From Carcharhinus amblyrhynchos (lineage: Eukaryota): a DNA stretch of 64,000 nucleotides. A program made the translations under genes and the position numbers. The notes under the pieces are model-generated. The model was not told the origin of the DNA, ran no database searches, and saw only the letters and a list, made by a program, of their open reading frames with translations. Location: NCBI GenBank assembly GCA_965287045.1, contig OZ336882.1, forward strand, positions 18,538,001-18,602,000. Reading direction: 5' to 3'. Positions 3,161 through 62,985 of the stretch are shown here, one piece after another (position 1 is the first letter of the stretch; every line of letters starts with the position of its first letter).

Positions 3161-5396
3161 TACTGCTCTAGTATTGTATCCAAGAAGAATGAGTCAGTGT
3201 GCCTAACCTGGTGAATACTGTTTATCCCCATTTGCTACAAAACAGCTTAACAGGAAAGCCTTAGGATTACAAGATCACAGTGTGACTTAAGAGTGAACTA
3301 AAATGTCTGAAGTACTGAAAATGTATAAGAGACCACGATCCAGTCAGTAAGGTGGGATAATGAATGAATATTGGCTTTAAGCGCAGAATGAGACACGGTC
3401 CAGTGTACGGTGCAGATATATTACAATAATGACAATTTAGTGCAGATAGGTTTAACTGTACTCAGAACAAATTAATGTCTCTCCTCACAGAGAATCTCAC
3501 AGCAAAGCTACACTGCTGGGCTTGGTTTGATTAGACCTAAAAGGGTTGCTGACACCTTGGTTGCTTTTCACTATCCCAGGGCGACATCATTGTTAAATTT
3601 CAATTAATTTAATTTATTGCAGAAATTGTTAGGAGTTTAAGTGTATTTTTCTTTTAGCCTCGAGCTGTTGGTGCAAGAAATAGCTCTCGCGATCGTGGCA
3701 TTTATTAATATTATTTTTGAATACTATTGCAGTTTTCAAACAGAATGAATCAGGAGTCCCAAGAGGGATTAATAAATAAATCTATTTGCATTCTAATGAG
3801 AACAAATGTTTGGGGTGCATTGTCAAAATGTTAAAATGACTTGTATGTAATTATTTCTCAGCTTATTTTCAGAGAACTCATTCCCTGAACTCTTCTCAAA
3901 TTTCCAAGGAGCTCGAGTGTTTAGGATTCTGGAGAAAATGTCATTAGTGTAATTTGAACTCTTTACCACTAACTTCAACAGAAATGTTGCCGTAACACCC
4001 ACTCTGTAGTTTTTTTCTCTTTTTCTTCCTTCTTTATCTCCTCAGCAGTCGCTTTGATGTGTCCCTCAAGACGTTTTGGTGAAATCTTTCAATTTGCGCC
4101 TACTCCTTTTTAGTATTGGCTAATCACTTTGTAATTCCAAGTCAGGGTCAATTTAGGCACCTTTAGGGGACTGTTTGCATTTCTGTATGCACATCAAATA
4201 GTAGCCCTCTGCTGTTACTCATACTTCTACCCATTTATTCAGTGTGCAAAAGCAAACATTTGTTTCGCTGTGAATGTTATTGCCCAGCATGGGATTTATC
4301 TGTGCAAGTGAAGTTTTTCATTAGTAATTCCATGTTGTTAATGGACTAGGCAGTCTTTCCTTTGGTGAAGCAACAGACCGTCTTACTCAGAACAGCAGAT
4401 TTGCTGGTTGCTTGCAGGACACCAGCCTTCAAGGCAAATATGACGAGATCTGTGGCTTTCTCTAAATTATCAAAAATAGGTCATCATTCATTGTTTTTTT
4501 TAATGATATTGATGCTTGATCATGAGGGAAAACCCACCCAAAAGTGAACTGAAGAAGGCAAAGAAGTTGGTTTAAAAAAAAGTCACTTCAGAGATTAAGT
4601 AATTTTAAATCTTGGAAATCTGAAAAGGAAATGAAAAATCCTGGGAGTACACAGAATAAAACATCTTTTATATTGTCTTCTTCCACATATTGATCATTAC
4701 AGTTTGCTTATCAGTGTTATAAGTCGATGAATGATGCTGTTCTGACCTTGGTCATCTGACCAACTGCACACAGATAGTTTAGGCAACCATATTTGTGTGA
4801 CCTTTGTTGATTTTTCTTCAGCTTTTAACCATTCAACCTTATTGAGGATCTGAAATATCTTGATGTCAGTCTTACTTCCGGATTTTGGATCAGTGGTTTC
4901 CTTCTTAAGAGAACTCAATGGGTGTTAATTTCTGGGGTTAACTTGGAGCCCGTGTTAACGGAGACTGGATCTCCTTGGAGTTGTGTATTGTCACATCTAC
5001 TTTTCATCGTCTAGATGAATGATTGGAGAGCAGAGCTCAATGACATAACTATCCAAAATATGCTGATGGAATGGTACTTGTGGGTCTCTTAAGGAAGCAA
5101 TAGGGACTCTGGAAAAATCCGTAAAATGGCACAATGGCACCATTAGTACAGATCTTAGGAAAAAGCCAGTTAATGATACTGTTCTGGTGAAAATGTATGA
5201 TGTGGGCATTGAAGAAATCAGCGCCGCAAGTATTTAAGTATTAAAGTAGATGATGAATTGAATTGGAAGAAATAGTGTACAAATGTCCTCGCCAAAGGTC
5301 ATACAAAATTTGGAAATAATTATACTACCTCAGAAAATTAAAACCTTTTTGAATAATTCCCACAATAATGAAACTCTTTTATAAAGCTTGATGCAG

Positions 5397-5535
5397 AGGT
5401 GGTGGTGTAGTGGTATTGTCAATGGATTTGTAATCCAGATACGCAAATGCTCTGGGGCACCCAGGTCCAAATCCCACCATTCAATAAAAATCTGAAATTT
5501 AAAGGTTGAACGTTGACCATGAAACCATTGTTCCT
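5397..5535 (+). mobile_element. Partial tRNA-like head of the family seen at 59571
   Basis: ggtggtgtagtggtattgtc...taatccaga...ccaggtccaaatcccacca...gaccatgaaaccattg. Confidence 0.7.
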
Positions 5536-12275: not shown

Positions 12276-12712
12276 AGTCCCCTGTGTCCATGATAAAGAG
12301 GTAGCATTGTTCAATATTGGAGATCAGTTGGAGATGGTTTTGCTGACTCTATCAGGCCCCATTCCTCTGGCAGGAAGATGGCAGAAACCATGCATCTAGA
12401 TTTTCTGTGCACAGAGTGCCAGAGAATCTGGACAGAAAACTCAGCTGTGCAGCTGGAGAGCTGCACGTCAACCTTCCAGCCCCAATCCGTGCAAAGCACA
12501 TAAAAATCATCACATTCCACCAGTGACAAAGGCTTGCATCGTTATTGCGAAGAATTACCATTTCACTTTGCATGTCAGATCCTGTCCAAAAGTAATCAGC
12601 TGTATTGTAAAAACAAAAAGTATCACTTTTAAAATGTATTCCATGTATAATGGCTCCTTTCACTTAGTAAAATAAGAAAAACTTATCATTTTTAACTTTT
12701 TTTTAATCCTTT

Positions 12713-13045
12713 CATAGGATGTGAGTGTTGTTGACTAGGCCAGCATTTATTGCACATCCCTAATTGCTCTTGAGAATGTGCTATTCAACTGCCTTCTTGA
12801 ACTACTGCAGTCCCATGTGGTGTCATTCCATCCACAATGCTGTTAGAGAGTCACAGGATTTTGTCCCAGCGACCATAAAGGAACGACAATATAGTTCGAA
12901 ATCAGGATGGTGTGTGGCTTGCACGGTGAGTTGCAGATGGTTGTGGCTGTTCCCATGAACCTGGTGCCCTTGTCCTTCGAGGTGGAAGAAGTCAAATATT
13001 TGGAAGGTGCTGTCAAAGGAGGCTTGACAAGTTGCTGTGGTGCAC
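12713..13045 (-). mobile_element. 3' end of the CR1-group LINE family with the tRNA-like head
   Basis: Minus-strand tail agagcaattagggatgtgcaataaatgctggcc...cacatcctatgaa, shared with 39770-40390 and 47585-47660. Confidence 0.8.
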
Positions 13046-13464
13046 CTCTACTGTATGTGGCTCAACGACTAAGTGGAACAGCTTCTGTGTGTCCTGAGCT
13101 AGTCAACCGAAGAGTTAGTATCAGTGTTGGGGAGGCAAATACATTGAACGATTTCTGCCTTTAATGTTCGTGGGTGGAGAATAACCAACAGTGAAGGTTA
13201 CATCCCTGAAAATCTATAAACTTCAAAAGCAGTGGAGATGTTTTCAGAAAATGCTTAGCGAGACCTAACACCCTGCAAATGAATAAGAGCTAGGGCTGAG
13301 TGTTTTGGAATGCTTTGACATCCAGTGTGTGGGACAGATATAATTGCTGAGATCTTGAGGTCTCGTAATCAATAAAAAGGCTGCAACAAAGCTCAGTATT
13401 GCTAAACTAATGTTATTAACTTGGAAGATGACACTTGACTGGTACACTGCTTGTGGTTGATCAT

Positions 13465-23456: not shown

Positions 23457-24060
23457 AATTCTGGCTGACCAGCATTTATTAGCCACCTCTAATTAAAAGG
23501 GTAGTACTTAACCATCTTGAACCACTAAAGTCAATGTCTTGTCAGGGAGGAGCACCAGATGGGAAGCTGTGTGTTTGTGAGATGCAGTTGAAAAGCATGA
23601 GTGATTTCTACCATCTAGCTTGTAGATAGTATAGACTGCAGCAATGGTAAGGAAGTGCTGGAGACTGTGAAGGTTTTCGTTGGCAGATGAGGTGTCAGTT
23701 AAAGAGTTACTTTGTTCTGGATGCTGTCGATCTTCGTGAGTGTTGCTGGAGCTGCACTCATCCAGACACGTGAAGAGCATTACGTAATTATCTGTGCCTT
23801 ATTGGTTGGTGAAGACACTCTGGGGAGTCGGGGGCTGAGTTACTTGCTGCAGAATATTCAGCGTCTGATGTACTCTTGCAACCATGGTTTTATGTGGTCC
23901 GTCAGTTAAGTTTCCGGTCAATGATGACCCCAAGGATGGTAGGGGAGCATGAGTTGATCGCTGTTTGATTAATTATTCTTAGAGTCGAGCAATTGTAATG
24001 CAATTAAATGTCAAGTGTGGTTAGAATGCTTCTTCTCGGTATGGTCATTACCTCATACTT
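23457..24060 (-). mobile_element. Degenerate 3' region of the tRNA-headed CR1-group LINE family
   Basis: Aligns by eye with 47585-48068 and 40044-40390 (gagtgttgctggagctgcactcatccag). Confidence 0.7.
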
Positions 24061-29813: not shown

Positions 29814-29939
29814 TTAATGTAAACAAAGTTACGACAATGAAGAAAATAGAAGCAACAAGAATGGTAAATCCCCAGGACAAGATGGTTTCTATCCCAGGGT
29901 TTGAAGAACAGTCAGTGACAGAATTGTAAATCATACATA

Positions 29940-30268
29940 GTATCTGGAATTAAGAAGCTACTGATGACCATGAACCCATTGTCGATTGTCAAAAAAACCC
30001 ATGATCATCCTCAACACTGGTGGCCCCAGTTACTTACTCCTTATACATCTTGGTATGGCTCCTGCTCTGTCCAAGACTGCAAAAAACTACAAAGGGTCTG
30101 GTTCACTAATGTTCTTTCAGGAAAGAAATCTGCTGTCCTTACCCGGTCTGACCTACCTGTGACTGCAGAGCCACAGCAATTTGTTTGATTCTCAACTGCC
30201 CTCCAAGGGCAACTAGGAATAGGCAATAAACACTGGTCAGTCAATGATGCCCATGTTCCATGAATAAA
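29940..30268 (+). mobile_element. Short derivative (5' body + LINE tail) of the tRNA-headed LINE family, containing a 100 bp insert
   Basis: tctggaattaagaag...aaaaacccat|insert|ctggttcactaatg...tgccctccaagggcaactagg...cccatgttccatgaataaa. Confidence 0.75.
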
Positions 30269-30778
30269 TAGTAATAAAATGTCCGAAATAACTTCCAAAG
30301 TTTGCTTGATTCAAAAATGTTCAATTGGATTGGAAAATTGAAAATGCAACTCTATTATTTAAGAAAAATGACAGAGGTACACCAGGGAATGATAAATCAG
30401 TTAACCTAAGGTATTTATTATTTGGAAATTACTAAAATCTACAATTAAGGTTAGGGAATACCTTGAAAATTTTCCATTGACCGGAGGGATCCAGCATAGA
30501 TATGTAAAGTGTAGATTTTCGTAATTTCCGAATAATAAATATCTTAGGTTAACTGATTTATCATTCCCTGGTGTGACTCTGTCATTTTTCTTAAATAATA
30601 GAGTTGCATTTTTAATTTTCCAATCCAATTGAACATTTTTGAATCAAGCAATCTTTGGAAGTTATTTCGGACATTTTATTACTATTTATTCATGGAACAT
30701 GGGCATCACTGACTGACCAGCGTTTATTGCCCATTCCTAATTGCCCTTGGAGGGCAGTTGAGAATATGTAAAGTGTAG
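30188..30778. repeat. Local inverted duplication (arms 30188-30443 and 30510-30765) with a flanking 15 bp direct repeat
   Basis: Arms are reverse complements with about 11 mismatches by eye; atatgtaaagtgtag at 30500-30514 and 30764-30778. Confidence 0.95.
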
Positions 30779-33700: not shown

Positions 33701-34344
33701 AATCTGCATGATAGAGGGAGATTGCAGCATTTCTTTGGGACAAATGTCGTTGGGAAAATACTGCAGCTCTCTGAGAGCAGCTGGCAGCCTGCGGGGAGCT
33801 CTTTGGAAAGGCCCTTCTGCACCTTCACTTCTTTCACAGCCGGCCTTCCTGGCAGCGCTTATCCTTTCAGAGCAATTGTTTGATGCTGGCTAGCTGTTAA
33901 TCTCCAGGGGCCGATTGCAGACGGAAATGCATTTTGTGCCTGCCTCTGGGCCCACCAAGTGTGCATGTCCGATGGGTGAAAGATTCAGGTCCATATTACA
34001 TTCAGGAGTGCTAACTTAATGCTGCTTTGTTATCACAGCTGGAAGTGGGATTTAACAACCAAGTAGTATTTTTAATCAGAATAGCTCGTACTCAGTTTTT
34101 AATTAGCTGAAAATGATATTTACTGTGCAGAACAATATCTAGTTACGCTGGTGTACTGTGCTTAATGATACTCATAAAGCAAAGGATATATCAGTCCGTG
34201 ATGTGAGAAATTGTGATTGAGTACAGTTTTCTAGACCCCGTGAAGTCTCATGGCATCAACTCCAACACGGGCAAGGAAATCACCTACTCCTTACCACCTG
34301 CTGCCATTTTTTAGCTGTTATATCAGTTCACTTTCACGTTGAAA

Positions 34345-34565
34345 GTTTAAAGTTTATTTATTAGTGTCATAAGCAGGCTTACATTAACACTGCAATGAAG
34401 TTCCTGTGAAGATCCCCCTGTTGCCACACTCCGACGCCCGTTCGGGTACACTGAGGGAGAATTTAGCACAGCCAATGCACTCAACCAGTATGTCTTTCAG
34501 ACTGTGGAAGAAAACCGGAGCACCCAGAGGAAACCCACGCAGACACAGGGAAAATGTGCAGACTC
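34345..34565 (-). mobile_element. V-SINE with tail B, 5'-truncated
   Basis: aaagtttatttattagtgtc...gcttacattaacactgcaatgaagtt reverse tail plus V-core. Confidence 0.85.
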
Positions 34566-34888
34566 CTTTGAAAGAGGACACTGATGGTAATGAGGTCACA
34601 GAATGCACTCTGAGTCAGGGATTTCAATGCATATCATAGCACCATGACTGGCAAAGTCCTGAAGGACATAATTGCAAGATTATAGCTGCAGCAGGTGGTG
34701 AGATAACCAACAAGACGGGAAAACCTACTTGACCTCACCCTCACCAATCTAGTCTCAGATCCATTTGTCCATGATAATATTGGGAGATAAAGACAAACCT
34801 TCACTTTAAGGATACTGTCCATTTTGTTGTTTTGCACCACCACTGTTTTAAATGGCATAGACTCAGAACAGCTCTGGCAGCTCAAAAC

Positions 34889-35041
34889 ATGATGTGGAGA
34901 TGCTGGTGCTGGACTGGGATAAACACACTAAGAAATCTCACAACACCAGATTAAAGTCCAGCAGGTTTATTGGCAGTAAATGGCATTTGCTACCAAATAA
35001 ACCTGTTGGACTTTAACCTTGTATCGTGAGACTTCTTACTG
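34889..35041. mobile_element. Palindromic Penelope-like terminal mini-element (family 1) with a 10 bp TSD
   Basis: Arms ~34927-34982 and 34984-35041; agctcaaaac at 34879-34888 and 35042-35051. Confidence 0.85.
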
Positions 35042-35126
35042 AGCTCAAAACTTGCCATCCACGACGTGCTGTGGGCCGGCATATTCCTCACTCTGTACGA
35101 TTAACACCAAGCCAGCAAATGGATCA

Positions 35127-35610
35127 AAGAACAAAGAAAATTATAGCACAGGAACAGGCCTTCAGCCCTCCAAGCCTGCACCGACCATGCTGCCTGACTT
35201 AACTAAAACCCCCTACCCTTCCAGGGACCATATCCCTCTATTTCTATTCTATTCATGTATTCGTCAAGATGACCCTGAGAAGTCACTACCATATCTGCTT
35301 CCACTACCTTCCCCAGCAATAACTTCCAGGCACCCACCACCCTCTGTGTAAAAAATCTGCCTCATACATCGCCTTTAAATCTTGCTCCTCACACCTTAAA
35401 CCTGTGCCCCCTAGTAATTGACTCTTCCACCCTAGGAAAAAGCTTCTGACTATCCACTCTGTCCATGCCTCTCATAATCTTGTAGACTTCTATCACTCCT
35501 CAACCTGTGCTGTTTCAGTGAGTACAAACCAAGTTTCTCCTCATAGCTTGCAACCATACCAGGCAACACCCTGGTAAATATTTTCTGCACCCTCTCCAAA
35601 GCCTCCACAT
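35127..35610 (-). mobile_element. CR1 3' end (same subfamily as 13465-14358)
   Basis: aagaacaaagaaaattatagcacaggaacaggcc reverse tail. Confidence 0.88.
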
Positions 35611-36142
35611 CAATTCTGCTTCAATGTAGAATGTAACAGAGCATGTCAGGAGCAGCATTAGGCACATCTAAAAATAAAATAGCTACCTGTATTGTCATCC
35701 ACAATATTTTCCCTCCCTGTTGGGTAATTAGTGGGGTGGTAGTGTCAGGACCTCCAGGCTTCTTATCAGACCATTGAATCACGCAATGACCAAGGTTTCT
35801 ATTCTCAACGAGCCATGGTGTAGTATTTGAACCTGGAGCATCTAGTCCAGAGATAATGATCTTACCACTGCATCACTGGTGAAGCGACAATACAGGACTA
35901 CATGCCTGTTAACTGCAGAACAACATGCTATAAACAGAGTTAAGAAATCAAAGCTGTACAATCCTGCCACATCCTGAGGTTAATGGTAATGGACAACTAA
36001 TCAAGGGAAGTGGGTCCAAACACATCCCCATTATCAATGATGGGGAGCCTAGCACATCAGTGCAAAAGACAAGGCCAAAGCATTTACAACCACCTTCAAC
36101 TAAAAGTGCACAATCGATGATCCATTAGGACAGCTACCTCAT

Positions 36143-36780
36143 AGCGCCGGGGACCCAGGTTCAATTCCTGGCTTGGACCACTGTCTGTGCGGAGTTTGCA
36201 CATTCTCCCTGTGTCTACATGGGTTTCCACTGGCTGCCCTGGTTTCCTCCCACAGTCCAAAAGACATGCTGGTCAGGTGCATTGGCCATACTAAAAACTC
36301 CCTTGGTGTACCCAAACAGGTGTCAGAATGTGGCAATGAGGAGGTTTTCACAGTAACGTCATTGCACTGTTAATATAATCTTCCAATCCATCACGCAAGC
36401 CAGCCTCCCATCCATTGACTCTGCCTACACTTCCCGCTGCCTCGGCAAAGCAACCAGCATAATTAAGGACCCCACACAGCCCGGACATTCTCTCTTCCAC
36501 CTTCTTCTTTGGGAAAAAGATACAAAAGTCTGAGGTCACATACCAACCGACTCGAGAAAAATTTGTCTCTGCTGCTGTCAGACTTTTCAATGGACTTAAC
36601 TTGCATTAAGTTGATCTTTCTCTATACCCTAGCTATGATTGTGGCAATACATTCTGCACTCTCTCGTTTCCTTCTCTATGAATGGTATACTTTGTCTGGA
36701 CACACGCAAGAAACAATAATTTTCACTATGTTAATACACGTGACAATAATAAATCAAATCAAATAATAAATAAGCTTTAA
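36143..36780 (+). mobile_element. V-SINE with tail B, with a Rex1-like 3' end (36378-36763) inserted in its tail
   Basis: SINE runs to ...ttgcactgttaat, then Rex-like GKRYKSLRSHTNRLEK and (aaatc)n, then aataataaataagcttt. Confidence 0.8.
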
Positions 36781-36906
36781 TTTTAACTTTATTTCTGCCT
36801 TGTCCTGCGGCCTGTACCGCTACAGAAGCGAGTCTTCATCCAATTTGATTTGTTCTATGTGATATCAAGAAATGGCTGAAGGCACTGGACACAGCGAAGG
36901 CTCTGA

Positions 36907-39769: not shown

Positions 39770-40390
39770 TCTGGGTGTAGCTGACCAGGCCAGCATTTAT
39801 TGCCCATCCCTCTTTGCCTTTGAAGAGGTGGTGGTGAGCTGCCTTCTTGAACCGCTGTACTCCCTGAGGCAAAGGCACACCCATAATGCTATTAGGGAGT
39901 TCCAGAATTTTGACCTAGCGACAGTGAAGGAACGGTGATATATTTCCATGTCAGGATAGTGAGTGACTTGGAGGAGAACCTCCAGATGGTGGTGTTCCCA
40001 GGTATCTAAGTTTCTACTGTCTTATCCTTCTAGATGGTAGTTGTCATGGGTTTGTAAGGTGCAGCTTAAGGAGCCTTGCTGATTTCCTGCAGTGCATCTT
40101 GTAAATGGTACACATCCCTACCTTTGTTGTCGGTGGTGGAGGAATTGGATGTTGGCGGAAAGTGTAACAATGAAATAGGCTGCTTTGTCCTGGATGGTGC
40201 CAAGCCTCTTGAGTGTTGTTGGAGCTGCACTCATCCAGGCAATTGGCAAGTATTCCGTTACACTCCTGCATTCCTGATGGTGGACATATTTTGAGAAGCG
40301 AGGAGGTCAGTTACTCACTGCAGTATTCCTAGCCTTTGACCTGCTCTGGTAGCCATGCATTTATATAGCTAGTCCAGTTCCGTTTCTGTT
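39770..40390 (-). mobile_element. 3' end of the tRNA-headed LINE family
   Basis: ggccagcatttattgcccatccc reverse tail; CTIYKMHCRKSARLLKLHL remnant. Confidence 0.85.
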
Positions 40391-41217
40391 CTGTAAGTCT
40401 ATTCCATTTACCAGCCTCCATCCCTTGATATGCTTACCTAACTATAAAATCCATGGATCTCAGTGTTTTGTCCCAAATATGTTAGTGGTGGGTTTAAAAA
40501 AATAAAAAAAGTTGTGGCTTGCACATGTTGATTCTGACAACAACAGATTCATTGTAGGAACTATTGTATGTACAGAGTCGAAAATGAAACTAAAACAGGA
40601 GCCTGTGCCAAACCCCACCATCACCATCTAATCACAACGTCTGCTCTTAAAGCAATCATGCAATCATTTAAATATATAACACCCAGTTTTAGGAATCCCA
40701 ATTGTTCTGACATCCAGAATATTTAGGGGAGAGAATTCAAAATTTATACAACTCTTTGTATGAAAAATTGCTTCTTGATTATGCCCCTTAATGATTTGAT
40801 TTTAATTTTGAGATTTATAATTCCCCCATCAAAGGAAATGGTTTTCTTCAAGAATCCCTATCCAATCCTTTTAGAATTTTAAACACTACAAAAGTTACGC
40901 ATCGACAATATTCTGTTGGCTGTGAAATACTTGAGGTTTCTGAAAGAGTACGAAAAAATTACAAACTATTCAATTTTTAAGAGACTATGCGCTCCATGAA
41001 GAAAATAACAATGGTTTCTGCTGTTGAAAAGAAATTTATTCTAATATTAAACTCTGAGGCTCACGCTGCACTGGGCATCTCAACTTCATTTAAAGTCTGT
41101 TGCTTAGCTTTGAGGCCAGGGAATTTCTGATTCCATTTGGCTATTAGACTGTGGCTGTCACTTTCTCTTTAGTCCCAGGCCATTAACCTCATCGATCATC
41201 CTTATTTTCTTTCAATT

Positions 41218-42062: not shown

Positions 42063-42446
42063 GACTCAAAAAATAGGAGAAAATTAACCAATTGGATATG
42101 AGGGATGAAAAAATAATGAATTCCATTTATGTAGTGCTATTCATGAATGAATGTAAGATGGCCACTAAGAAATTCAGATCTGAGTAGGAAGTTGAGCAGA
42201 AAACCCCTTACTCAGTGAGTGGTTAGAATGTAGAACCCACTGTTGCAAGACGTTGCTAAAGAAAATAATATGGTTAAATTCAAGGGGAAATTAGATAAGG
42301 ACTGGTAGGAGCAAGAAATTTAAGGTTATGCTAGTAGTGTTACATGAAAAGGGATGGAAGGAGTATAATGTGGATCATAAAAATCAGGATAAAGCACTTG
42401 GACAAAGTGGCCTGTAATATTTAGTAATACAGATATTTCGTGTTTA

Positions 42447-43096
42447 ACATAAGAACATAAGAAATAGGAGCAGGAGTAGGCCATCTCGCCCTTCGAGCCT
42501 GCCCCGCCATTCAATAAGATCATGGCTGATCTGTCGTGGCTCAGTTCCACATTCCCGCCCTCTCCCCATAACCCTTAATCCCCTCTCTTATCAAAAACCC
42601 ATCAACCCGCGTCTTAAGAATATGTAGCGAGGCAGCCTCCACCACCTCAATGGGCAGAGAATCCCAGAGATTCACCACCCTTTGAGTGAAGAAGTTCCTC
42701 CTCAACTCTGTTCTAAACCGCCCCCCCTTTATCTTGAGGCTGTGCCCCCTAGTCCTACTGTCCTTTCTGAGCGGGAAGAGTCTCTCCACCTCTATCCTAT
42801 CCATCCCATTCATCATCTTATACGTCTCAATGAGATCTCCCCTCATTCTTCTAAACTCTAACGAGTACAAGCCTAGTTTATTCAGCCTCTCCTCATAGCT
42901 CAAGCTCTTCATAGCTCAAGCCCCTCAACTCCGGTATCAGCCTAGTAAACCTCCTCTGCATTCCCTCCAAGGCCAAAATATCCTTGCGTAAGTACGGCGA
43001 CCAAAACTGCACACAGTACTCCAGCTGCGGCCTCACCAATGCCCTATATAGCCGCAGCAAGACCTCCCTACTTTTATATTCAATCCCCCTCGCTAT
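42447..43096 (-). mobile_element. Young 5'-truncated CR1
   Basis: Near-identical to 1884-2520; small internal duplication tcatagctcaag at ~42893-42920. Confidence 0.95.
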
Positions 43097-43858: not shown

Positions 43859-43954
43859 TATTTCCATTATTTTTCATGAAGTTGCTCTTTTGACAGTCAT
43901 TTTATTGTCAATATTTAAGTGGGTGTTTTTTTTAATGGTGTGCTTTTTCTATTC

Positions 43955-44305
43955 TATTCATTCTTGGGCATAGGCACCGCTGGCTGGCCAGTATTTATTG
44001 CCCACCCCTAGTTGCCTGACGGTATTTGAGAGCCAAACACATTGCTGAGGGTCCAGAGTCACATGTAAGCCAGACCAGGTAAGGATAGTCGATTTCCTTG
44101 CCAAAAGGACGTTAGTGAATCAGATGCTTTTTTCCAACAATCAACAATGGTTTTGTGATCATCAGTAGATTCTTAATTCCAGATTTTTTTTATTAAATTC
44201 AAATTATACCACCTGCCATGGTGGGATTTGAATTCAAGTCCCTAGAACATTAGCTGAGTTTCTGGATTAATAGTCTAGCAATAATACCTCTCAGTCATTG
44301 CCTCC
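43955..44305 (-). mobile_element. Full short derivative: tRNA-like head + 5' body + LINE tail
   Basis: Minus strand: gggaggcaatg...taatccagaaactcagctaatgttctagg...ttcaaatcccacc...ggcaactaggggtgggcaataaatactggcc...gaatgaata. Confidence 0.8.
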
Positions 44306-45675
44306 CTTTCTTGCTAAATTCATTGTTTTACTAGTTACATTAAATCCTCATTTGACAATTCTTTTCTGTGGGACTCAAGCAATTCCACCACAAAAGCCTC
44401 TTCCATCTCTTCAAAGCCAACTTCCTTTGCCAAGTTGAACTTGGTGAAAAATGTCATCAAATCCTCAGAGGTTGTTGCCGCATTCAGGCCATGCACCATT
44501 CATGCACAGTAATATAACTACATCCCACCAATCAGCAATACTATCTGTCCCCCTGAGTATATTACAAGTATGCCACAAATCCCCTGATTATTGGCTCATT
44601 TTCATTATCAGTTTCCCTGATGCTCTGGGAGAGGGTGTAATGTAATTGACAAACCATGGACATTGCTGTTGACTCCTGATCCATGGGTTTACAATGAATT
44701 CGGGTTTGGTAGCAAGAAAATCACCTTAAGATAGTCTGATATGTCATTGTGACTTAGGACATTATCGAAGATAAAGAAAATTTAAAAGTTGACATTTCCA
44801 TTGGCACAATATTCTGACTGAACAGCGATAAAATGCAGGGAAAAATTATTGAAAAAGTGTCCCTCCTTATCCAGGAAATCTTATTTGAATGCCAAATAAC
44901 ACATAGATGTTCTTTGGTATAGCTCCACAATGACCTAAGCATCTCTGACTTAATCACCACTAAGTGCTTAAACCCGAAATCTCCTGCAGTGTTAAGCAAT
45001 CTTTTGTGGACTTAAATCCTGGCAGTCATTTCCTTTTTTGGCAATATGTGGCATATTCTTTCAGTAAGACACTTTCTCAGCAAAGTTAAAGACTCATTTT
45101 TGGTGAGTAGCCACCTTCCTCAATAATCTTCTTAAAATGGGCAGGAAATTTTGCAACCCTTCACCCTTAGTTTGATGTCATGTGATTAGCAATGCCTCAT
45201 AAAATGTTCAAACTGACCATGACTAGCACTCAAACTTTCCAACTGTGCACCCTTGCCCTGTCCATTCTTTCAGCCATCAAAAAAAAGCTTTTAGCTTTTG
45301 CTTGAATAGCTATTATAGTAAAAGGTACATTGCATTGGGTTTGGTCTTCGACCCTGACATCTTTCTGCATTTTCCATGACACTGCTTCTAACACAACTTG
45401 CCTTGGTAGCACTTAAAGGGGTAATGTTTTGCATACTTTCTTTGATCTTGTCGGCATTACCACAGATTGATCTGACCATTGTAGGAGGTGGCTGTAATGG
45501 TCTCCAAATAGCAACCACTTGTTCTCTGGTATTAAAACACCTTCAAACCTTTGGTTTCATTTCTGAGTTGATAGTTTTTCTTTGTTTCTTTCAAGTACCA
45601 AAATCAATACCATCCTGAATCGAATGTTTTTGACTTCAGTTTCTAAGGAATTCTAAAGGACTGAATCACTAAATT

Positions 45676-46535: not shown

Positions 46536-47584
46536 GGATCCAGAGTGGAAATGTGTTATGCGCAACTCAGAAGTGCACTGCACACGGCATTGGCTGGATC
46601 ACCTTCTGGTTATCCAGGCAGGGGGTCTTGCAGACGTTTTAGACTTCTTTCTACAATTGCTTTCAAGCTGACCACAGCGTGGCCACACAGACTGCATTCA
46701 GCTTTCTCAGGTGAACAGAAGCCAACCCAATAATGTCTAAAGGGACCTCTGGAAGCTGTCACCAAAAATGTAAGCAAAAGATGTAAGCAAAAAACGTAGG
46801 TGTGTAGTCAGGAGGACTCTATAATTCACCTGTGGATCATTGCTGATCTTGGCCCAAATTCACACCATTTCCAAGATTTATCCAATGTCCTTACCTGGGA
46901 TCCCAGTAGACTCATCTTCCTACGTTTGCCTCCATCTTCTCATCATCTCTAGACACATGAGGAAGGCCCTTGGCTATATGAGCGGAGTTAGCACACCCAC
47001 TTTCCTATTGATGCTTGTAGGCATGTGCGCTGTACCTGAATAAAATCCCAAGTTGGGACATAAACCTGCAGAAAATTATTCACAATGTTCCGATTGCCTT
47101 CCAAGGAAATGTTTCATTCAGTTACCCCCTGGTACTTTAATTTGAATTGTTTAAAATCAGATTGAGTGGACCAACACTCCGAGTCCTGCACCTTGAAACA
47201 TCAATAATATCTCTCTGCTGAGGCTGGGAGCTAAGCTCATAATGTTGCTAGCCGATCACAAAATAGCCCAGTCATATCAATCAGTGAGGATGCAGACAAA
47301 AGCAGCAAGACAATTCAAGTGAAAAGTTATGAGACAAAAATAGAGATAGCCGAGTTCTGCAAGTTTGTAAGGGTGGTGGTTAAGAGAAAACCTCATCAAA
47401 GCACATAAAATATTAAACTGCATAGACAAGGGAAACCCTTAGCATTGCTTTAAAGTAAAGCCAGAAAGTCCAGAGGACATCAATTTTTTAAATAATGTTA
47501 AGAGATAGTGGAGATAGCTATCATTCTGAGTGTGATATTTCTGAGTTGCTTTTCCAGACAGTGGAACAGTGACAAGATTTTATT

Positions 47585-50372
47585 TTATTCATTCACGGGA
47601 TGTGGGCAATGCTGGCTGGGCCCACATTTATTTCCCAATGCTGATTGCCCTTGAGAAGGTGGTTAGTGACCTGCTGGTTGAGCTGCTGCAGTTCCTGAGG
47701 TGTAAATACACCTTGTGACCCAGCTGCAGTGAAGGAATGGACATATATTTCCAAGTCAGGGTGGTGCATGGCTTGGAGAGAAACTTCCAGATGGTGGCGT
47801 CGCAATGTACCTGCTGACCTAGTCCTTGTCAGTGGCATTGATTGTGGGTTTCAAAGGTGCTGTCTAAGCAGCCTTAATGAGTTCCCGCAGTGCATCTTTT
47901 TGATGGTTTCTACGGCTGCCACTGTGCATTGGTGACAGAGGGAGTGAATATTTCTGGATGAGATGCCAATCAAGTGGGCTGCTATATCCTGGATGGTGTT
48001 GAGCTTTTTTTCAGTTGGAGCTGCACTCATCCAGGCAAGTGGAGAGTATTCCATCACCCTTTTGACTTCTGTTTGGCTAGATTTTCAGAAGGCGTTTGAC
48101 AAAGTACCTCACAAGAGGTTATTGCAGAAGGTCGAGGGACATGGAGTTGGGGGTAGGGTGTTAGCGTGGATAGAGGATTGGTTGTCAAATAGGAGGCAGA
48201 GAGTGGGGGTCAACGGGTGCTATTCGGATTGGCGGATGGTGACTAGTGGAGTGCCCCAGGGGTCGGTGCTGGGGCCTCAGCTTTTTACCATTTATATAGA
48301 TGATCTGGAGGAGGGAACCGAGTGTAGGGTGTCGAAATTTGCTGATGACACCAAGATTGGGGGAACGGCAAATTGTGCGGAGGGTGTGGAGAGTCTGCAG
48401 AAGGATCTAGATAGGCTGGGCGAATGGGCCAGGAAATGGCAAATGGAATTTAATGTTGGCAAGTGTGAGGTGGTCCACTTTGGTAGGAAGAATGGTAGGA
48501 AGGACTATTACTTACGGGGCGAAAAACTGCAGCAGGCGACGGTGCAGAGGGACCTCGGGGTCCTTGTGCATGAGTCGCAAAAACCCAGCTTGCAGGTGCA
48601 GCAGGTGGTCAGGAAGGCAAATGGGATGCTGGCCTTCATAGCGAGGGGGATTGAATGTAAAAGTAGGGAGGTCTTGCTGCAGCTGTATAGGGCATTGGTG
48701 AGGCCGCAGCTGGAGTACTGTGTGCAGTTTTGGGCGCCGCACCTGCGCAAAGATATTTTGGCCTTGGAGGGAGTGCAGAGGAGGTTTACTAGGCTGATAC
48801 CGGAGTTGAGGGGGTTGAGCTATGAGGAGAGGCTGAATAAACTGGGCTTGTACTCGTTAGAGTTTAGAAGAATGAGGGGAGATCTCATTGAGACGTATAA
48901 GATGATGAATGGGATGGATAGGATAGAGGTGGAGAGACTCTTCCCGCTCAGAAAAGACAGTAGGACTAGGGGGCACAGCCTCAAGATAAAAGGGGGGCGG
49001 TTTAGAACGGAGTTGAGGAGGAACTTCTTCACTCAAAGGGTGGTGAATCTCTGGAATTCTCTGCCCGTTGAAGTGGTGGAGGCTGCCTCGCTAAATATTT
49101 TTAAGACGCGGGTTGATGGGTTTTTGATAAGAGAGGGGATTAAGGGTTATGGGGGGAAAGTGGAACTGAGCCACGACAGATCAGCCATGACCTTATTGAA
49201 TGGCGGGGCAGGCTCGAAGGGCTAGATGGCCTACTCCTCCTATTTCTTATGTTCTTATGTTTGTGGACACAGGGAGTGAGTTGCTGGCCGCAGGGTACCT
49301 AGCCTCTGACCTGCGCTGTATTTATATAGCTGGTCCAGTTCAGTTTCTGATCAATGGTAATTTCCAAGTGGTTGATTTTGGAGGATCCAGCAATGTTAAT
49401 GCCATTGAATGTCAAAGGGCAATGGTTAGAATCTCGCTTGTTGAAGGTGGTCAGTGCCTGGCAATTGTATGGCGCAGATATTACTTGCCTTTTGTTCGTC
49501 CAGACTTGGATAATTTTCAGGCCTTGCTACATTTGGACACAAACTTCTCCAGTATCTGCAAAGCCACAAGTGGTGCTGAACTTTATAAGAACATAAGAAA
49601 TAGGAGCAGGAGTAGGCCATCTAGCCCTTCGAGCCTGCCCCGCATCATTATTATTATTTTATTATTATTATGCAATTATGCAAGCATCAGCAAACATTCT
49701 GCTTCTCGTCTTATGATGGAGGGAGGTAGCTGAATTGGTTGGGCCTAGGACACTATCCTGAAGAAATCCTGCTGTAATATCCTGGATTTAGATGATTGAC
49801 CTTCAACAACCACAACCATCTTCCATTGTGTCAGGTATGATTCCAATCAGCGAGCTTTTCCGCCTAATTCCCAGTTTTGCTTGGGTTCCTTGATACCACA
49901 TTCAGTCAAATGCTGCCTTGATATCAAGAATAAGCACTCTCCCCTCACCTCTGGAGTTCAGCTCTTTTGTCCATATTTGAACCAAGGCTGTAATGAGGTG
50001 ATGGATTGAGTGACCTTGACAGAATCCAAACTGAACATCAATGAGCAGCTTATGTTCTTATGTTCTAAGCAAGGGATAACGCTGTTCATGACCCCTTTGT
50101 TCACTTTACTGATGATCGAGAATAGAATGGTGGGGCAGTAGTTGGTTAGGTTGAATTTGCCTTATTTCTTGTGCACAGGACATACCTGAGCAATTTTACA
50201 CACTGCTGGCTAGATGCCAGCATTATAACTGTACTGGAACAGCTTGACTAGGGATGCGGCAACTTCTGGAGGACAAGTCTTCAGTCTTCTCGCTGGAATA
50301 TTGTCAGGGCTCATAGCCTTTGCAATATCCAGTGCCTTCAGCAGTTTGTTGATATCATAAGGAGTGAGCTTG
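47585..50372 (-). mobile_element. Long 3' portion (tether, RT, tail) of the tRNA-headed CR1-group LINE family, interrupted by young CR1 inserts
   Basis: LKALDIAKAMSPDNIPARRLKTC (ORF 50210..50407), MEYSPLAWMSAA (ORF 47851..48057), tail at 47585-47660. Confidence 0.85.
48071..49260 (+). mobile_element. Young 5'-truncated CR1 with an open partial RT (LDFQKAFD...GVPQGSVLGP...FADDTK)
   Basis: ORF 47963..49225; CpG-rich; (ttatgttc)n tail. Confidence 0.97.
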
Positions 50373-50917: not shown

Positions 50918-51575
50918 ATTTCAGGGGACGTAGATGTTGCTGGCTGGCCAACATTTATTGAAGTAGAGATGCCAGCATTAAACTGGGGTAAACGCAGTAA
51001 GAAGTCTCACAACACCAGGTTCGTGTCCAACCAGTTTATTTGATAGTAAACCCCCAAGCTTTCGGAAATGGTGTTCCTTTGTCAGGTGTGTGGAAGGTAA
51101 TTCTAATCAGTATTCTGTAAACTGTGCGTGACTTTATGTGCCCTTCTCTGATCAGAACCTTTCACACACCTGACAAGGGAACACCATTTCCGAAAGCTTG
51201 TAAGATTACTATCAAATAAACTGGTTGGACTCTAACCTGGTGTTGTGAGACTTCTTACAACACTTATTGTCCATACCTCATTGCCCAAAGGCACTTGAGA
51301 GTCAACCACGTTGCTGTGACTCTGGAGTCACATGTAGGCCAGACTAGGTAAGAACAGCAGATTTCTTTCTCGAAAGGACATTAGTGAAGCAGATGGGTTT
51401 TTTTCCAACAGTTGACAATGGTTTCGTGGCCATCAGTAGATTATTATTTCCAGATTTTTAAAATTGAGATCAAATTCCACCATCTGTCATGGCAGGATCC
51501 GAACCCGCATCCCCAGAACATTAGCTGAGTTTCCGGATTAATAAACGAGCAATAATATCACAAGGCCAGTGCCTC
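50918..51575 (-). mobile_element. Short tRNA-head + LINE-tail derivative, split by a Penelope-like hairpin
   Basis: Same layout as 43955-44305 once 50961-51258 is removed. Confidence 0.8.
50961..51258. mobile_element. Palindromic Penelope-like terminal mini-element (family 1) with an 11 bp TSD and hammerhead-like cores
   Basis: Arms 50997-51110 and 51148-51258; aacatttattg (50950-50960) and aacacttattg (51259-51269); cctgacaagggaacaccatttccgaaagctt. Confidence 0.85.
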
Positions 51576-51924
51576 CTATATGAAGCTGTCCTGAAATAAT
51601 TGGAGATCATTGCAAGCAATCCATTTCAGGAAATTTTCTCTTTTCGTTTCAGATTCTAGCATCCAAAGTAATTTGCAGTTCAGAAAAATATGTTCAGATG
51701 AGGCATATTAAATGAGAGTTGACATGGATTTACAGTAGCTGAATTATGCCTGAAAAAGTTATTTTTATTTTTCTGGGTGTCATGTTAAATGTGACTCACT
51801 GGGGTGAAGGGGTTGGATTTTGCGAGATGTTTCCTGATGTCACTCACAAGGGTGCTCAGTGGCACTGGAAAAGTTTGGAAACAAATTGAGAACAGTTGAG
51901 CTGCTGATTTTGGGTCAGCAATTG

Positions 51925-55152: not shown

Positions 55153-55877
55153 AATTATCTAATTCCTTTTGAAAGTTGTGAGTTAATTTGCTTCCAACAC
55201 CTCTTCAGACAGTTCACTTCAGATTAGCATAGACCACTGCACAATTTTTTTCTTTCACCACCTTTATTTTTGCCATTTACCTTCAATCTGTATCCCTTAT
55301 TTCTCAACACTTCTGTCACAAGAACCAGTTTCTCCTCAGTACCGTAACAAGATGCTTATATGTTTTGAATGCATCTCTCAAACCTCCTCTTAATGTTCTC
55401 TGCTTTAAGTAGTCATTTAGGGAACTCTAGTCTTAAATGCCCTGTTTTTCTCCTTTGTGGGAATGTGACTCACCCAAAACAGCCCCTCTTTTCGTAGATT
55501 CGCATTGCTCACTGAAGGTTTTACCAGTCATTAAAATTAAGACTGCAGTTCAATATTTTCACGTTTCAGCTTTTTCTTTCACAATTAGATTAAACTGAGT
55601 GATATTATGATCATTATTTTCTAAATGTCCTCGCACTTCTTATCCACAACAGCATAAGGCACTGATTTCTTCCTCATTGAGCTGAAGATGTGAAAACTAA
55701 AGAATAAATCTCTTTTAAATGTATTTCTGGAATTCCTCCCCCCCTGTTCCCTTTAGACCACTATTTTCTCAATCTAAGTTAGAAGTCTCCAATCTTCACC
55801 ACACCAAACCTCTTGCATCTTTCTGCAATTTGCATGCAAATTTGCTCCACTACCTTCTTCCTGTTGTTTGATGACCT

Positions 55878-55970
55878 GTAAGAAGTCTCACAACACGAGG
55901 TTAAAGTCCAGCAGGTTTATTTGGAATCATGAGCTTTCAGAGCGCTCGCTGCTCCCTCATCAGGTGAGTG
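55878..55970 (-). mobile_element. Penelope-like terminus with a minimal hammerhead-like motif
   Basis: Minus strand: cactcacCTGATGAgggagcagcgagcgctctGAAAgctcatgattccaaataaacc. Confidence 0.75.
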
Positions 55971-56843
55971 AAGGTTTTGGAGGCCAGATAGAGAGGCACA
56001 AAGGGGGATTATGATCTTTAAGGTTGAGTCTCTTCACTGTGCACAGGAACACAGAGGTTTATTCCCTCTTCTTGCTGCCTTTTTATCAACCTGGGTGAAA
56101 AATGGCCTTCCCACTCTCATCATGGATTAATTGGCCAATAATTGGCCACTTTTCAGAATCAATATGTCACAGGGTGGGTTGGCTACTTTGGCGAGCAGGT
56201 CAGGGGTGAGTAGAATGGCAGTGGGTTAGCCACTTGACAGATTGTACATGGTCAACTTTCCCATGATGGCAGGGAGCCATAAATCCAACCCAAAATCTCA
56301 AGTGCTATTGGTGCCTACAGCCCACTAGCCTTACTAATCACTTGTTAATTTGTTGTTTATTCCCCCATCTGATCCCTCCAATTTCTGGCTTACTCTTCAT
56401 TCAATGCTGTTTCTCTCACCCAGGCTTCTGTAAATCATGAATCTTCCCTCTGCACCAGTCAAACTGGTTGAATTTTACTGACTGCCTGATGGATTATGTA
56501 ACATAGAAATATTGATCTACTTGAAAGTGGACACCTTTAAAAAGCCCATGAAGACAAGACACATGTGAACACATGTAGCAGAGTGCTACTTGGTGTCTTA
56601 CTCTCAAGAGAGCTACAAGGTAGTCTAAAAGAAATACCATGGCTTGAGAAAGAGCCCAAAGATAGGACTAGAATATTACTGTAAACTTGCACATGGCACA
56701 CATATGAATGGAGGGAAAGTTGGACAGAAAATGGTGGACTGAAATAGAAATGTTGAGGATATAGCAAGTGTAATATATACAGTAATGTGTACACTATAAC
56801 CTATCTTGCATTCAGAATTTCTCTTGTTTTCAGTGCAAAAGAA

Positions 56844-59570: not shown

Positions 59571-60478
59571 GGGTGGTGGCGCAGTGGTATTGTCACTGGA
59601 ATGATAATTCAGAGACCCAGCGTAATCCTCTGGGGACCCAGGTTCAAATCCCACCACAGCAGAAATGGAATTTTAAAAACTAAATAAAAATCAGAAATTG
59701 AAAGTCTAACGATGATCATGGAGCCATTGTTAGCTGTCATAAAAACATAAGTTGTCCATTATTGTCCTTTAGGTCTGGCTTACATATGACTCCAGACCTA
59801 CAGAAATGTGGTTGCTCTTAGATGCCCTCTGAAATAAACCACTCAGTTCTATTCAATCACTACCGCCTGGCATCAATCTGGGCATCACAAACAACAGCAG
59901 TAAACCCAGCCCTATTAACCCTGCCATGTCTGCGTTTCTAACATCTGGAACTTGTGCCAAAATTGGGAGAGCCCACAGAATCATACCTTACAGGTAATGT
60001 CCCAGACACCATCATCACTATTCCTGGAAATGTCCTGTCCCCCAGCAGGACAGACCCAGGAGAACTGGCAGCACAGTGATAAACAACCAGGAGGAAGGTG
60101 CTCTTGGAATCATCGACATCAACTCTGGACCTCATCACGTCTCATAGCACCAGGTCAAACATGGGCAACAAAATCTCCTGTTGATTACCATGTGCTGTCC
60201 TCCCTCAGTTGATGAATCGGTACTCCTCCATTTTGAACACCACTTGGAGGAAGCAGTACAGTGGCAAGGGTGTAGAATGTACTCTGGGTTGGGGGGCTTC
60301 AATGTTCATCACCAAAAGTGGCTCAAAAATACCACCACAGACTGAGTTGGCTGGGTCCTAAAGGGCATAGCAGCTCAACTGGGAATGCAGCAGGTGGTGA
60401 GGAGACTAACAAGAGGGAAAAACATGCTTGACCTCACCCTCACCAACCCAGCCTGCCACAGCTGCATCTGTCCATGAT
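59571..60478 (+). mobile_element. 5' end of a CR1-group LINE: tRNA-like head followed directly by degenerate APE endonuclease sequence
   Basis: A box tggcgcagtgg (59577-59587), B box ggttcaaatcc (59641-59651); from ~59940 NIW..VPKLGE..TESYL, ..GGFNVHHQKWL and QQVVRRLTRGKNMLDLTLTN remnants. Confidence 0.8.
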
Positions 60479-60752
60479 GGTGGTGGCACAGTGGTTAGCA
60501 CTGTTACCTCACAGCACCAGGATCCTGGCCTGGGTCACTGTCTGTGTAGGGCCTGCACGTTCTCCCCGTGTCTGCATGGGTTTCCTCCAGGTGCTCCAGT
60601 TTCCTCCCACGGTCCAAAAGACATGCTCGTGAGATGCATTGACCATGCTAAATTATCCTTCAATGCATTTGAACAGAGTGTGGCAACTAGGGGATTTTTG
60701 CAGTAAATTAATTGCAGTGTTAATGTAAGCCTACTTGTGACATGAATAAATA
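60479..60752 (+). mobile_element. V-SINE with tail B
   Basis: ggtggcacagtggttagc head; tail gtaagcctacttgtgacatgaataaataaa. Confidence 0.85.
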
Positions 60753-62985
60753 AATTGCCTGAAACTTGAGTTTGTTCTGTGAGTACTGCACCTTGAATGC
60801 TGGAGCCATTCTCTTCTGCTTCACGAGGGGATAATTAGTTGTTACAATTTTTGACTATGCACTCAAACTTACTTTAGATTCACTATCAGTCATCTCTACC
60901 ATAAATCAATCCTACCTTCCTTAACAATTGGGATTTATTTTTACTACCCAATAACTGCCCATACAATAGTGCAACTTCAGTGTGCTAGCAGTGAATCCCC
61001 TCAATGTGTGTCCTGGATACTTTAATTTTATGCATGAACCCCCCCCGCCCCCCCCATCCCAGCCCCATGCATAACTGCTAGAAGGCAGACAAATGTGCAT
61101 TCTGGTGAGGTGAAACCCAGGGATTGGCCACTTGAGCTGTCAATCAAACTTGCTAATGACCTCCTCTGTGTATTCCTGGCAGCTGGCCCTTGTGGAGCTA
61201 AGTGGAATGAATCCAGTCCAACATATTAGATATGAATGTTACCAGAATGTTTTAATGAATCCCTATGTTTCAAATTGACATGGTATTAGCTACCCAACTG
61301 CAAATCTATATTTCAGCTACATTTAATCAGTGTTCCGAAGAGCCGGGTGCATTGTATGGACTTAATCATTTATGATCTGAATATAATTTAACAGCATATC
61401 CCTCAAATGAATTAATCCAGAAACTCTCTTTAGAAAAACAACTTGCTGGATTTTCATCCTTGAGGCTGGGATTGCGGGACTTCCCGACTTAGCTCAACTG
61501 CCTCGGGAAAATGCTAGGAAAGGTGGGATTTTCATTATGTGAGGGCAGTGGGTACAGTCCGGCTTGCCAATCTTGGGAAAAGATCAGAGGCAGCGACAGG
61601 AGTTGCCAGGGGCTGGCAGGATGCTGTGGGACTTTGTTCCAGGTATAATGAAAAAGGTAAGGCCTTGTAACCGTCAGAATCTCTCAGCTCCCACATGAAT
61701 GACCATTTCATTCCACCTCATGTCCCTATCCACTCATTATAAACCCTCAAGCCTTCCATGCCAGGTATGCCTCAACCCACTCCCTATAGCCCATAATGTC
61801 CCCATGCCAAGCCAAGCCTTTTCCATGCCCATTCTTCACTCACCATGCAATGTATATTAACCAAACCTCTTTAAGCGCTCTTGACTGAGAGTCCATTAGA
61901 GACATCTGAGCCATGCTGCTTGATTAATAGCCCTGGTACTTTGCTATCTTCTATCAAATGCACAGTGCTTATGTGCGCAAGATAAAGAGGATTCGAGTGT
62001 TTGCTATTTCAGCTACTGATACTTAAAAAGGGTCTGGGTGGTTGACACTTTTCAGTAAGCAAAATATTTTTCTAAGAAAGCAACAAGCTTATTTTTACAC
62101 ATTTTATTGTTGTTTTCACTGGTTATATACAGTGTATAGTGGATAAATAGGCATGCAAATGGCATAGCCTAGTATGGCGGGTGTGGGCATGAGGAGGATC
62201 TTTTGAAGTTACTTTTCAAAGGGTTCCCTCATGCAGGCTATGGTTCACAACACTTCTCTGATGCCGTGAACCGCAATTCATTGAAAAGCTGTCCAGGCTG
62301 CATGAACTGAATTCTTCGGGTGGTGGGGGCTTGATGACATCACCACATTCCTCGAATGCCAGCAGCCATTTTAGGCTCAAATGTGCGTTGACTGGCAGCA
62401 GATGGGACTTTGCCCTCACTTGCAAGGTAGTCTCGTTTTGGAGAGCTACAGGCCGACAGCTCTCCAGCCCATCCAGAAACAGTGCTGCAGTGGCCGGAAG
62501 AGGCACTACAGAGACCTGCCTGGTGTTGGGACATGGAGGCCAGGTAAACGGTAGGGATCATGGGGTTGGAGGACATAGGACTGCTGGGGAGATTGTGATA
62601 AGGGCAATTGGGTTATCGGGTGAGAGGCACAGGGATGGGTGTGTGGGGAGGGGAGCAAGGTGAGTTGTCCTGCCCTTGAATGAGGATGCCCCCAGTCAGA
62701 AGGGGACTACCAATGGAGGCATCCCACCCCTAACCTCTCACCCGAGGTCGAAGATAGAAAATATTTCTGTTTTGCACTCTGAGTAGTCTGTTCACCTAAA
62801 AATTGAGGCATAGCATGAAAAGTCCCTTCGATATTCATTAAGTGGTCAATTAACTGGGGCAAGGGTGGAATTTCCATTTGAGGTTTCTGCCCGGCCGGTA
62901 AAATCACATCTGGGTCAGGGCAAGCGGGTTCATCCATACTCAACATCTGTCAGGGGGTGAGTGTAAAATTCAGGCTTATGAAAGT

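Follow-up and report, generated by a model that had tools for sequence, protein, structure and literature searches.

LINEs are held to be transcribed by Pol II and SINEs to be unable to encode protein (Kojima 2018, PMC5786205, in its available sections). The locus described here raises the question of whether a single retrotransposon can stand on both sides of this division. Near the end of the window, i.e., the whole 64,000-nt stretch of DNA that was analysed, a tRNA-like head runs through a non-coding body into the remnants of an APE endonuclease. A preliminary description took this to be one autonomous LINE using a tRNA-derived internal promoter, and took the short, SINE-like copies nearby to be its internal-deletion derivatives. 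The genome around the window spans 2.9 Gb and is rich in shark-type repeats, and the named matches in protein searches came exclusively from sharks and rays. Here, we ask whether head and ORF form one element, which polymerase would transcribe it and how its short forms arose. Statements on published work refer to the available parts of the cited papers.

Results

The window copy and its relatives

The head of the window copy carries the A box (TGGCGCAGTGG, 59577-59587) and the B box (GGTTCAAATCC, 59641-59651) that had been reported, and head and body continue, again as described, into endonuclease remnants (from ~59925) with no tail or poly-A in between. The endonuclease frame retains the motifs GFNVHH and LDLTLTN and contains three stops, and the corresponding stretch of a stop-free copy matches Pfam Exo_endo_phos_2 (PF14529). 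At 59 of 67 diagnostic sites the window copy is in the state of subfamily B, to whose majority it is 85% identical; it is truncated and decayed, lies amid dense repeats, and its continuation past 60477 was found neither in the window nor in the next 6 kb. All the short elements and LINE pieces that the preliminary description had named align to the family majority sequence and form one family with it (Table 1).

Table 1. Members of the element family in the window and the features of the copy at 59,571
Feature	Position	Strand	Basis or remark
tRNA-Ser-like head with long variable arm; 5' end of the LINE	59571..59662	+	A and B boxes, ARAGORN on family heads, alignment
Non-coding body; 26- and 8-nt deletions in window copy	59663..59848	+	Strong conservation between subfamilies
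LINE-only link; 33-nt deletion in window copy	59849..59924	+	In the family Arg/Lys-rich and open in the endonuclease frame
Decayed APE endonuclease, start of the single ORF; the copy stops at the end	59925..60477	+	Subfamily B
Short form in which head and body meet the terminal ~65 nt of the LINE; head and tail both of A type	43952..44306	-	Alignment to family majority
Short form, A-type head; palindromic insert ~50960-51260 splits the tail	50918..51576	-	Alignment to family majority
Headless short form, body and tail; 94-nt insert 30003-30096	29921..30280	+	Alignment to family majority
RT-to-tail part of the LINE; a younger CR1-like insertion lies within it, ~48071-49260	47579..50367	-	Alignment to family majority
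Endonuclease-to-RT fragments of the LINE, several inserts between	34230..36901	+	Alignment to family majority
3' fragment of the LINE with tail	39772..40391	-	Alignment to family majority
3' fragment of the LINE with tail	12697..13047	-	Alignment to family majority
Internal 3'-half fragment of the LINE	23619..23938	-	Alignment to family majority; absent from the preliminary description
Isolated family head fragment	5396..5532	+	Alignment to family majority; absent from the preliminary description

Several other repeats were observed around these copies. A very abundant tRNA-headed repeat, which we take to resemble HE1/V-SINE, occupies 60481-60760, where the window copy ends, and many other places. 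An inverted repeat of 259 nt (30188-30446 and 30507-30765; arms 95% complementary and separated by 60 nt) takes in the headless short form's tail together with its unique flank, and is therefore a local fold-back duplication that followed insertion. A second large palindrome (37568-37824 and 37931-38187, arms of 257 nt, 91%, 106 nt apart) likewise comprises repeat plus flank. The palindrome at 50997-51098 and 51157-51258 (102-nt arms, 92%) is a dispersed element that sits within the tails or bodies of other repeats and has relatives at 34890-35042, 55877-55979 and 682-731. Finally, a young CR1-like LINE family with long open frames (48071-49260, 1886-2717, 42446-43096 and loci L079-L083; 93-99% between copies) served as a control for T-runs.

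Head, ORF and tail as one unit across the genome

A search with the link and the start of the endonuclease returned 2617 candidates, of which 40 were scored, and the 39 non-self matches represent 38 regions, one of them (L030) a duplicate of another (L015). Among these endonuclease-selected loci 15 of 38 extend into the initial 30 nt of the head, 21 reach the first 130 nt, seven are complete from head to tail, and 29 reach the body, of which the query itself included 53 nt, its top alignments falling nearly all in the endonuclease part. Heads occur four times in the 64-kb window as against none in 141,696 unselected bases. When the junction of one copy (L017) was used as the query and 40 of 6544 candidates were scored, all 39 other matches spanned the ~350-nt passage from body to endonuclease at 82-86% identity, with the head start reached in 26 and both head and tail present in 14. 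The same junction is thus found genome-wide, and the window locus is not the unique case that would have pointed to an accident of insertion.

Seven copies align in a single piece of 3125-3261 nt. The 5' boundary is sharp, similarity stopping at the first bases of the head, and the flanks of 58 loci showed no alternative shared 5' end, which speaks for the preliminary description on its second check, that full-length copies might have another 5' UTR and an ORF1. Similarity up to the element start was seen in two flank pairs of the 58 (L006/L022 and L021/L129; three of the four loci are headed), and by eye the flank shared by L006 and L022 looks like the 3' end of the young CR1-like repeat. No consistent target-site duplication was present among 14 full-length copies. 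Head, body, one ORF and a ~60-nt 3' end with an A-tail constitute one unit of ~3.25 kb. As a separate observation, the full-length copy L006 (G000:C9:98200000-98209900) contains an internal inverted duplication of 310 nt of the endonuclease region.

A single ORF in two subfamilies

From the start of the head to the endonuclease motif there are ~445 nt with no long frame, so that the space for an ORF1 is indeed lacking. The single frame encodes, in order, an Arg/Lys-rich stretch, the APE endonuclease, the RT and a C-terminal part, and ends ~60 nt 5' of the A-tail; the RT stretch of one copy (L010) matches L1 ORF2p. It is free of stops over 796 codons in both subfamily majorities, and its last ~170 codons do not fall in one clear frame. 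In full-length copies the A-run is terminal and follows ATGAAT; one AATAAA lies ~45 nt upstream of it and another at +118 in both subfamilies.

The body had been put at ~290 nt, but measures ~220 nt in the family and is followed by ~125 nt of link, which are Arg/Lys-rich, open in the endonuclease frame and most likely encode a basic N-terminal extension; pN/pS in this frame is 0.59 as against 3.3 and 4.5 in the others, on seven changes only. No in-frame AUG precedes the endonuclease, whose motif stands at codon 40, the first Met being codon 171. At each codon before the motif an in-frame ATG is found in at most two of 69 copies, and an out-of-frame ATG is kept in 60 of 70.

Of 79 aligned copies, 56 belong to subfamily A, 22 (the window copy included) to subfamily B and one to neither, and head alleles are linked with ORF alleles across the subfamilies. 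At non-CpG sites copies have diverged by 7.9% and 13.5% from the majority of their respective subfamilies. Over 756 codons the A and B majorities differ by 89.5 synonymous and 67.5 non-synonymous changes (pN/pS 0.23), third codon positions holding 92 of 157 changes, and the B majority was aligned via an A-like reference, which may shrink differences everywhere. At least two subfamilies have therefore amplified with the ORF under purifying selection. Since the ORF was selected while the head was carried, the element was autonomous, and the claim that one such element joins head, endonuclease, RT and tail is borne out by the seven single-alignment copies. Eleven large internal deletions with unlike breakpoints were found among the LINE copies.

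Pieces of the LINE ORF also occur in predicted shark and ray host proteins (P0002, P0163-P0165 and P0167; aldo-keto reductase, FERM, cystathionine beta-synthase and anoctamin). These are probably annotation errors, exonisation being the alternative.

The tRNA-derived head and the conserved body

The head is ~95 nt long. Its tRNA identity rests on an alignment and on four better-kept family heads, which ARAGORN called as tRNAs of 89-92 nt; it called no tRNA gene in the 64-kb window, and Rfam gave no tRNA match for one head. Among true tRNAs of this genome, in a sample without Leu, Tyr, Sec and other Ser types, the best match was tRNA-Ser(GCT), with a score of 46 against a shuffle maximum of 29. 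With one mismatch at most to what we take to be the box patterns, the A box was found in 28 and the B box in 32 of 36 copies. ARAGORN called no tRNA head in 35 tested of 80 metagenome loci holding relatives, most of which are without a known 5' end.

The body is under constraint, since the two subfamilies differ at only nine of its 219 sites as against 17% of synonymous sites (p = 4e-7). Its predicted folding is not unusual (z = -0.46 and -0.79), z was never below -2 for head, body, link or tail, and Rfam gave no support for a ribozyme.

Genuine tRNA genes were noted in a dense cluster of tRNA-Lys(TTT), tRNA-Val(TAC) and tRNA-Thr on the window's chromosome (G000:C13:77.10-77.71 Mb, L088-L112), with further clusters on C39 and C27.

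Identity with elasmobranch Zenon

Stuart et al. 2026 (PMC13343379, in the parts available) reported Zenon from five elasmobranchs, coelacanth and hagfish, and defined it as lacking ORF1 and ending in poly-A; in Table S3 the copies of spiny dogfish look youngest. By sequence match the element is the elasmobranch Zenon LINE of those published consensuses: it lacks an ORF1, has a poly-A tail and carries one ORF with APE endonuclease and RT. The absence of ORF1, which had been put forward as unusual, is therefore no anomaly, as Zenon elements lack it. Compared by eye over their first 400 nt, CarCar_Zenon-1, RhiTyp_Zenon-1, ScyCan_Zenon-1, HypSab_Zenon-1 and SquAca_Zenon-1, -2 and -3 match the head, body and link described here, subfamily B being like CarCar and ScyCan and subfamily A like RhiTyp. 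All seven shark and ray consensuses thus begin with the tRNA head and body, whereas over the same stretch, again by eye, two hagfish consensuses and one from coelacanth have no tRNA head and show T-runs. The elasmobranch consensuses are mostly about 3.2-3.3 kb long with one ORF, no ORF1 and an A-tail, as here, and no structural difference was found in the material available. The available text and supplement of PMC13343379 make no mention of tRNA, Pol III, T-run loss, a missing AUG or a short form.

In a quick RT tree with unlabelled references the element stood apart from the other LINEs of the genome (32-37% identity) and near proteins at 47-49%. It does not agree with a canonical vertebrate CR1, having no ORF1 and an RT outside the clade of those elements of the genome that we take to be CR1-like from their motifs.

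Depletion of oligo-T on the sense strand

Pol III terminates at runs of T4 or longer and at TCTTT (PMC9599045, in the parts available), so a Pol III RNA of 3.25 kb must lack both. The sense strand of both majorities contains no T4 and no TCTTT but 14 runs of A4, and a plain majority has one T4, at a site of CpG decay. Runs of TTT number five and four in the majorities compared with about 22 in shuffles; overall, five are seen where 16-28 are expected. Of all 64 trimers TTT shows the strongest depletion in both subfamilies, with a base null as well as with a dinucleotide null, and within the ORF a codon-aware null gives three against 16.1 and two against 15.0 expected.

This depletion was not seen in the other elements compared. 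Among 64 related ORFs (drawn from 80 metagenome loci by requiring a frame of at least 1500 nt, and mostly T-richer than the element) the median TTT ratio is 1.03 and the minimum 0.75, and each has at least two T4. In all 15 frames from other LINEs of the genome, controls that amount to about two families, T4 is present and TTT exceeds TTC, with 12 of the 15 at or above the shuffled T4 count. Real decayed copies (165 kb, counted with no majority step and with insertions dropped) hold 97 T4 compared with 323 after shuffling, and 851 A4 compared with 939.

The absence of T4 alone does not reach significance against dinucleotide shuffles (p = 0.13), and T4 p-values are also low for two of the nine controls from this genome and for several among the 64 metagenome ORFs; the oligo-T case therefore rests on TTT. 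Set against other two-fold codons, the TTT:TTC ratio gives only p = 0.05 and 0.09. Contigs assembled from four runs cover all bins of the element, and carry no information on start, strand or polymerase. The purging of terminators from the sense strand suggests that the LINE is probably transcribed in full by Pol III from its tRNA-derived head.

Short forms built from the two ends of the LINE

With the head as query, 40 of 3971 candidates were scored and gave 39 loci; 39 alignments were classed, as 32 short forms, one LINE and six others. Following the 3' flanks of head matches had been expected to lead into the endonuclease at many loci; two do enter the ORF and one the link, but most are short. 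In most of these loci the body passes straight into the terminal 60-75 nt of the LINE, which agrees with the composition first proposed, but at least four junction types exist and not one. All of them nest inside the longest form, of which they could be deletions. The short form has a tRNA-derived head with boxes, a 3' tail shared with the LINE and no coding capacity, and it is composed of LINE ends only, its head and body being the LINE's own 5' end.

Both ends could be typed in 14 of 38 short copies, the remaining 24 not being callable at both, and gave six A/A, eight B/B and no mixed combination (p = 0.0003). A tree of 53 heads, for which 14 LINE A rows were chosen randomly out of 37, grouped the A-type short heads with LINE A at 100/98, with a bootstrap that had not settled. 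Three short copies (L046, L053 and L069) have heads intermediate between A and B, one of them with an A-typical junction. The short form follows the LINE subfamilies at head and tail, as expected of the internal-deletion derivative that the preliminary description had proposed, and one deletion per LINE subfamily explains this concordance and grouping best.

In two loci (L049 and L068) short copies are stacked or nested, three within 4.3 kb, which hints at insertion into copies of their own kind.

Discussion

We favour, with a probability of roughly 0.6, the reading that this is an autonomous elasmobranch Zenon whose 5' end has been swapped for a type-2 Pol III promoter derived from tRNA-Ser. 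TFIIIC would then probably bind the A and B boxes and Pol III would read the whole element, transcription ending, as for Alu, at a T-run in the flanking DNA. The uncapped RNA might, at even odds, be translated with no 5' in-frame AUG, the conserved body acting as an initiation or RNP element; a start at the out-of-frame AUG followed by a frameshift would be an alternative. CR1-group LINEs encode a protein that binds their RNA at its 3' end and inserts it by target-primed reverse transcription, and insertion here may proceed in the same way. With an internal promoter located right at the 5' end, a working SINE would result from any deletion sparing head and tail. For this reason, and because the short forms track the LINE subfamilies, we consider it likely that the LINE gave rise to the tRNA-headed short form, probably on more than one occasion.

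That a SINE came by chance to lie beside a LINE fragment, or that a single dead chimera was copied in trans, could be argued from the window copy by itself, truncated, 85% identical to its majority and set among dense repeats. It is hardly credible once the identical junction at dozens of loci, their sharp common 5' boundary, the purifying selection in two subfamilies and the same 5' end in the consensuses of five species are considered; the repeated junction, the selection and the published consensuses refute it. Transcription by Pol II is a more serious rival, although we hold it to be unlikely. It is the rule for LINEs and for bipartite derivatives (PMC5786205, as available), the AATAAA ~45 nt before the A-tail would suit it, a Pol III RNA would be capless while no structured initiation element was detected, and the T4 loss does not stand out from dinucleotide shuffles. 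However, the loss is specific to TTT and to one strand and continues through an ORF that the short form lacks, and LINE copies retain the boxes in either subfamily, as do the elements of sharks and a ray. The AATAAA that the two subfamilies share at +118 would fit poorly with a Pol II RNA, and a first in-frame AUG at codon 171 is unexpected in a capped, scanned mRNA.

The order of events admits another account, which is compatible with the use of Pol III by the LINE. A tRNA SINE with a Zenon tail would have come first as a lineage of its own and given head and body to a 5'-truncated Zenon, and later template switching would have swapped modules, so that today's short forms descend from the SINE and not from LINE deletions. 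Every short-form junction can be derived as a deletion of the longest form, three heads are intermediate, and short forms dominate the head-selected loci (32 of 39 alignments); such nested junctions and intermediate heads could also result if the LINE and a SINE lineage had exchanged parts, and module exchange among SINEs is documented (PMC5499810, in the parts available). Non-shark Zenon consensuses have no tRNA head, which implies that the head was acquired, a tail-sharing SINE being the likeliest donor. We nevertheless regard this account as doubtful, given that short copies of type A agree with LINE A in head as well as tail and would call for two exchanges per subfamily in place of one deletion, that lepidopteran Zenon repeatedly yields deletion derivatives (PMC6740152, in the parts available), and that the LINE copies themselves show 11 large deletions with unlike breakpoints. 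Origin of the short forms from the LINE remains our preferred reading, while the head may initially have been captured from a SINE.

A close known system is lepidopteran Zenon with its SIDE Persaeus (Wang et al. 2019, PMC6740152, as far as available): a single-ORF element of ~3.3 kb with high-copy internal-deletion derivatives of several independent origins. Persaeus has neither tRNA homology nor a Pol III promoter, whereas here both LINE and derivative are tRNA-headed. HE1/HER1, SINE2-1_CM and SacSINE1 (PMC3747384, PMC5499810) share with the short form a tRNA head with boxes, a body and a LINE-derived tail, but these SINE2 of cartilaginous fishes have only the tail in common with their LINE (HER1, L2-2_CM), and here the whole SINE lies inside the LINE. 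By their published descriptions, they have tRNA-Ala-type heads and CORE or Deu bodies. Bov-tA and the bipartite RTE- or Vingi-derived SINEs combine 5' and 3' LINE parts, as here, but there the RNA head sits on the non-autonomous derivative and the LINE is headless, whereas here the autonomous LINE is headed (Kojima 2018, PMC5786205, as available).

A further parallel is R2, which has a single ORF, an RNA that does not come from Pol II and translation without a normal capped AUG start. R2 uses the Pol I rRNA transcript, from which a ribozyme frees it, whereas the element here would carry a Pol III promoter of its own.

The Zenon family, its single ORF, its missing ORF1 and its tendency to form deletion derivatives are already known. 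What appears not to have been reported in print is that the LINE itself begins with the tRNA-Ser head, that one strand has lost its oligo-T throughout the ORF, that the AUG is missing and that a SINE lies wholly within its LINE; the openly accessible papers that we searched yielded no tRNA-headed or Pol III-transcribed autonomous LINE. The fullest form of the proposal, which we find evenly poised, is that the element has been transcribed end to end by Pol III since before sharks and rays split, with a 2.9-kb frame purged of oligo-T in an uncapped RNA with no 5' AUG, i.e., a protein-coding SINE with a one-deletion route from LINE to SINE.

If true, this would break the division between coding LINEs of Pol II and non-coding SINEs of Pol III (PMC5786205, as available), and would provide a natural and long-lived case of a protein of ~1000 residues made from a Pol III RNA, in which the conserved element of ~220 nt may serve as a cap-independent initiator of a new kind. 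It also explains simply how a SINE family can originate, and cautions that annotations of shark repeats break up a single element into a 'SINE' and a 'LINE'. With the T-run signature the Pol III idea can be tested, and searched for across repeat libraries.
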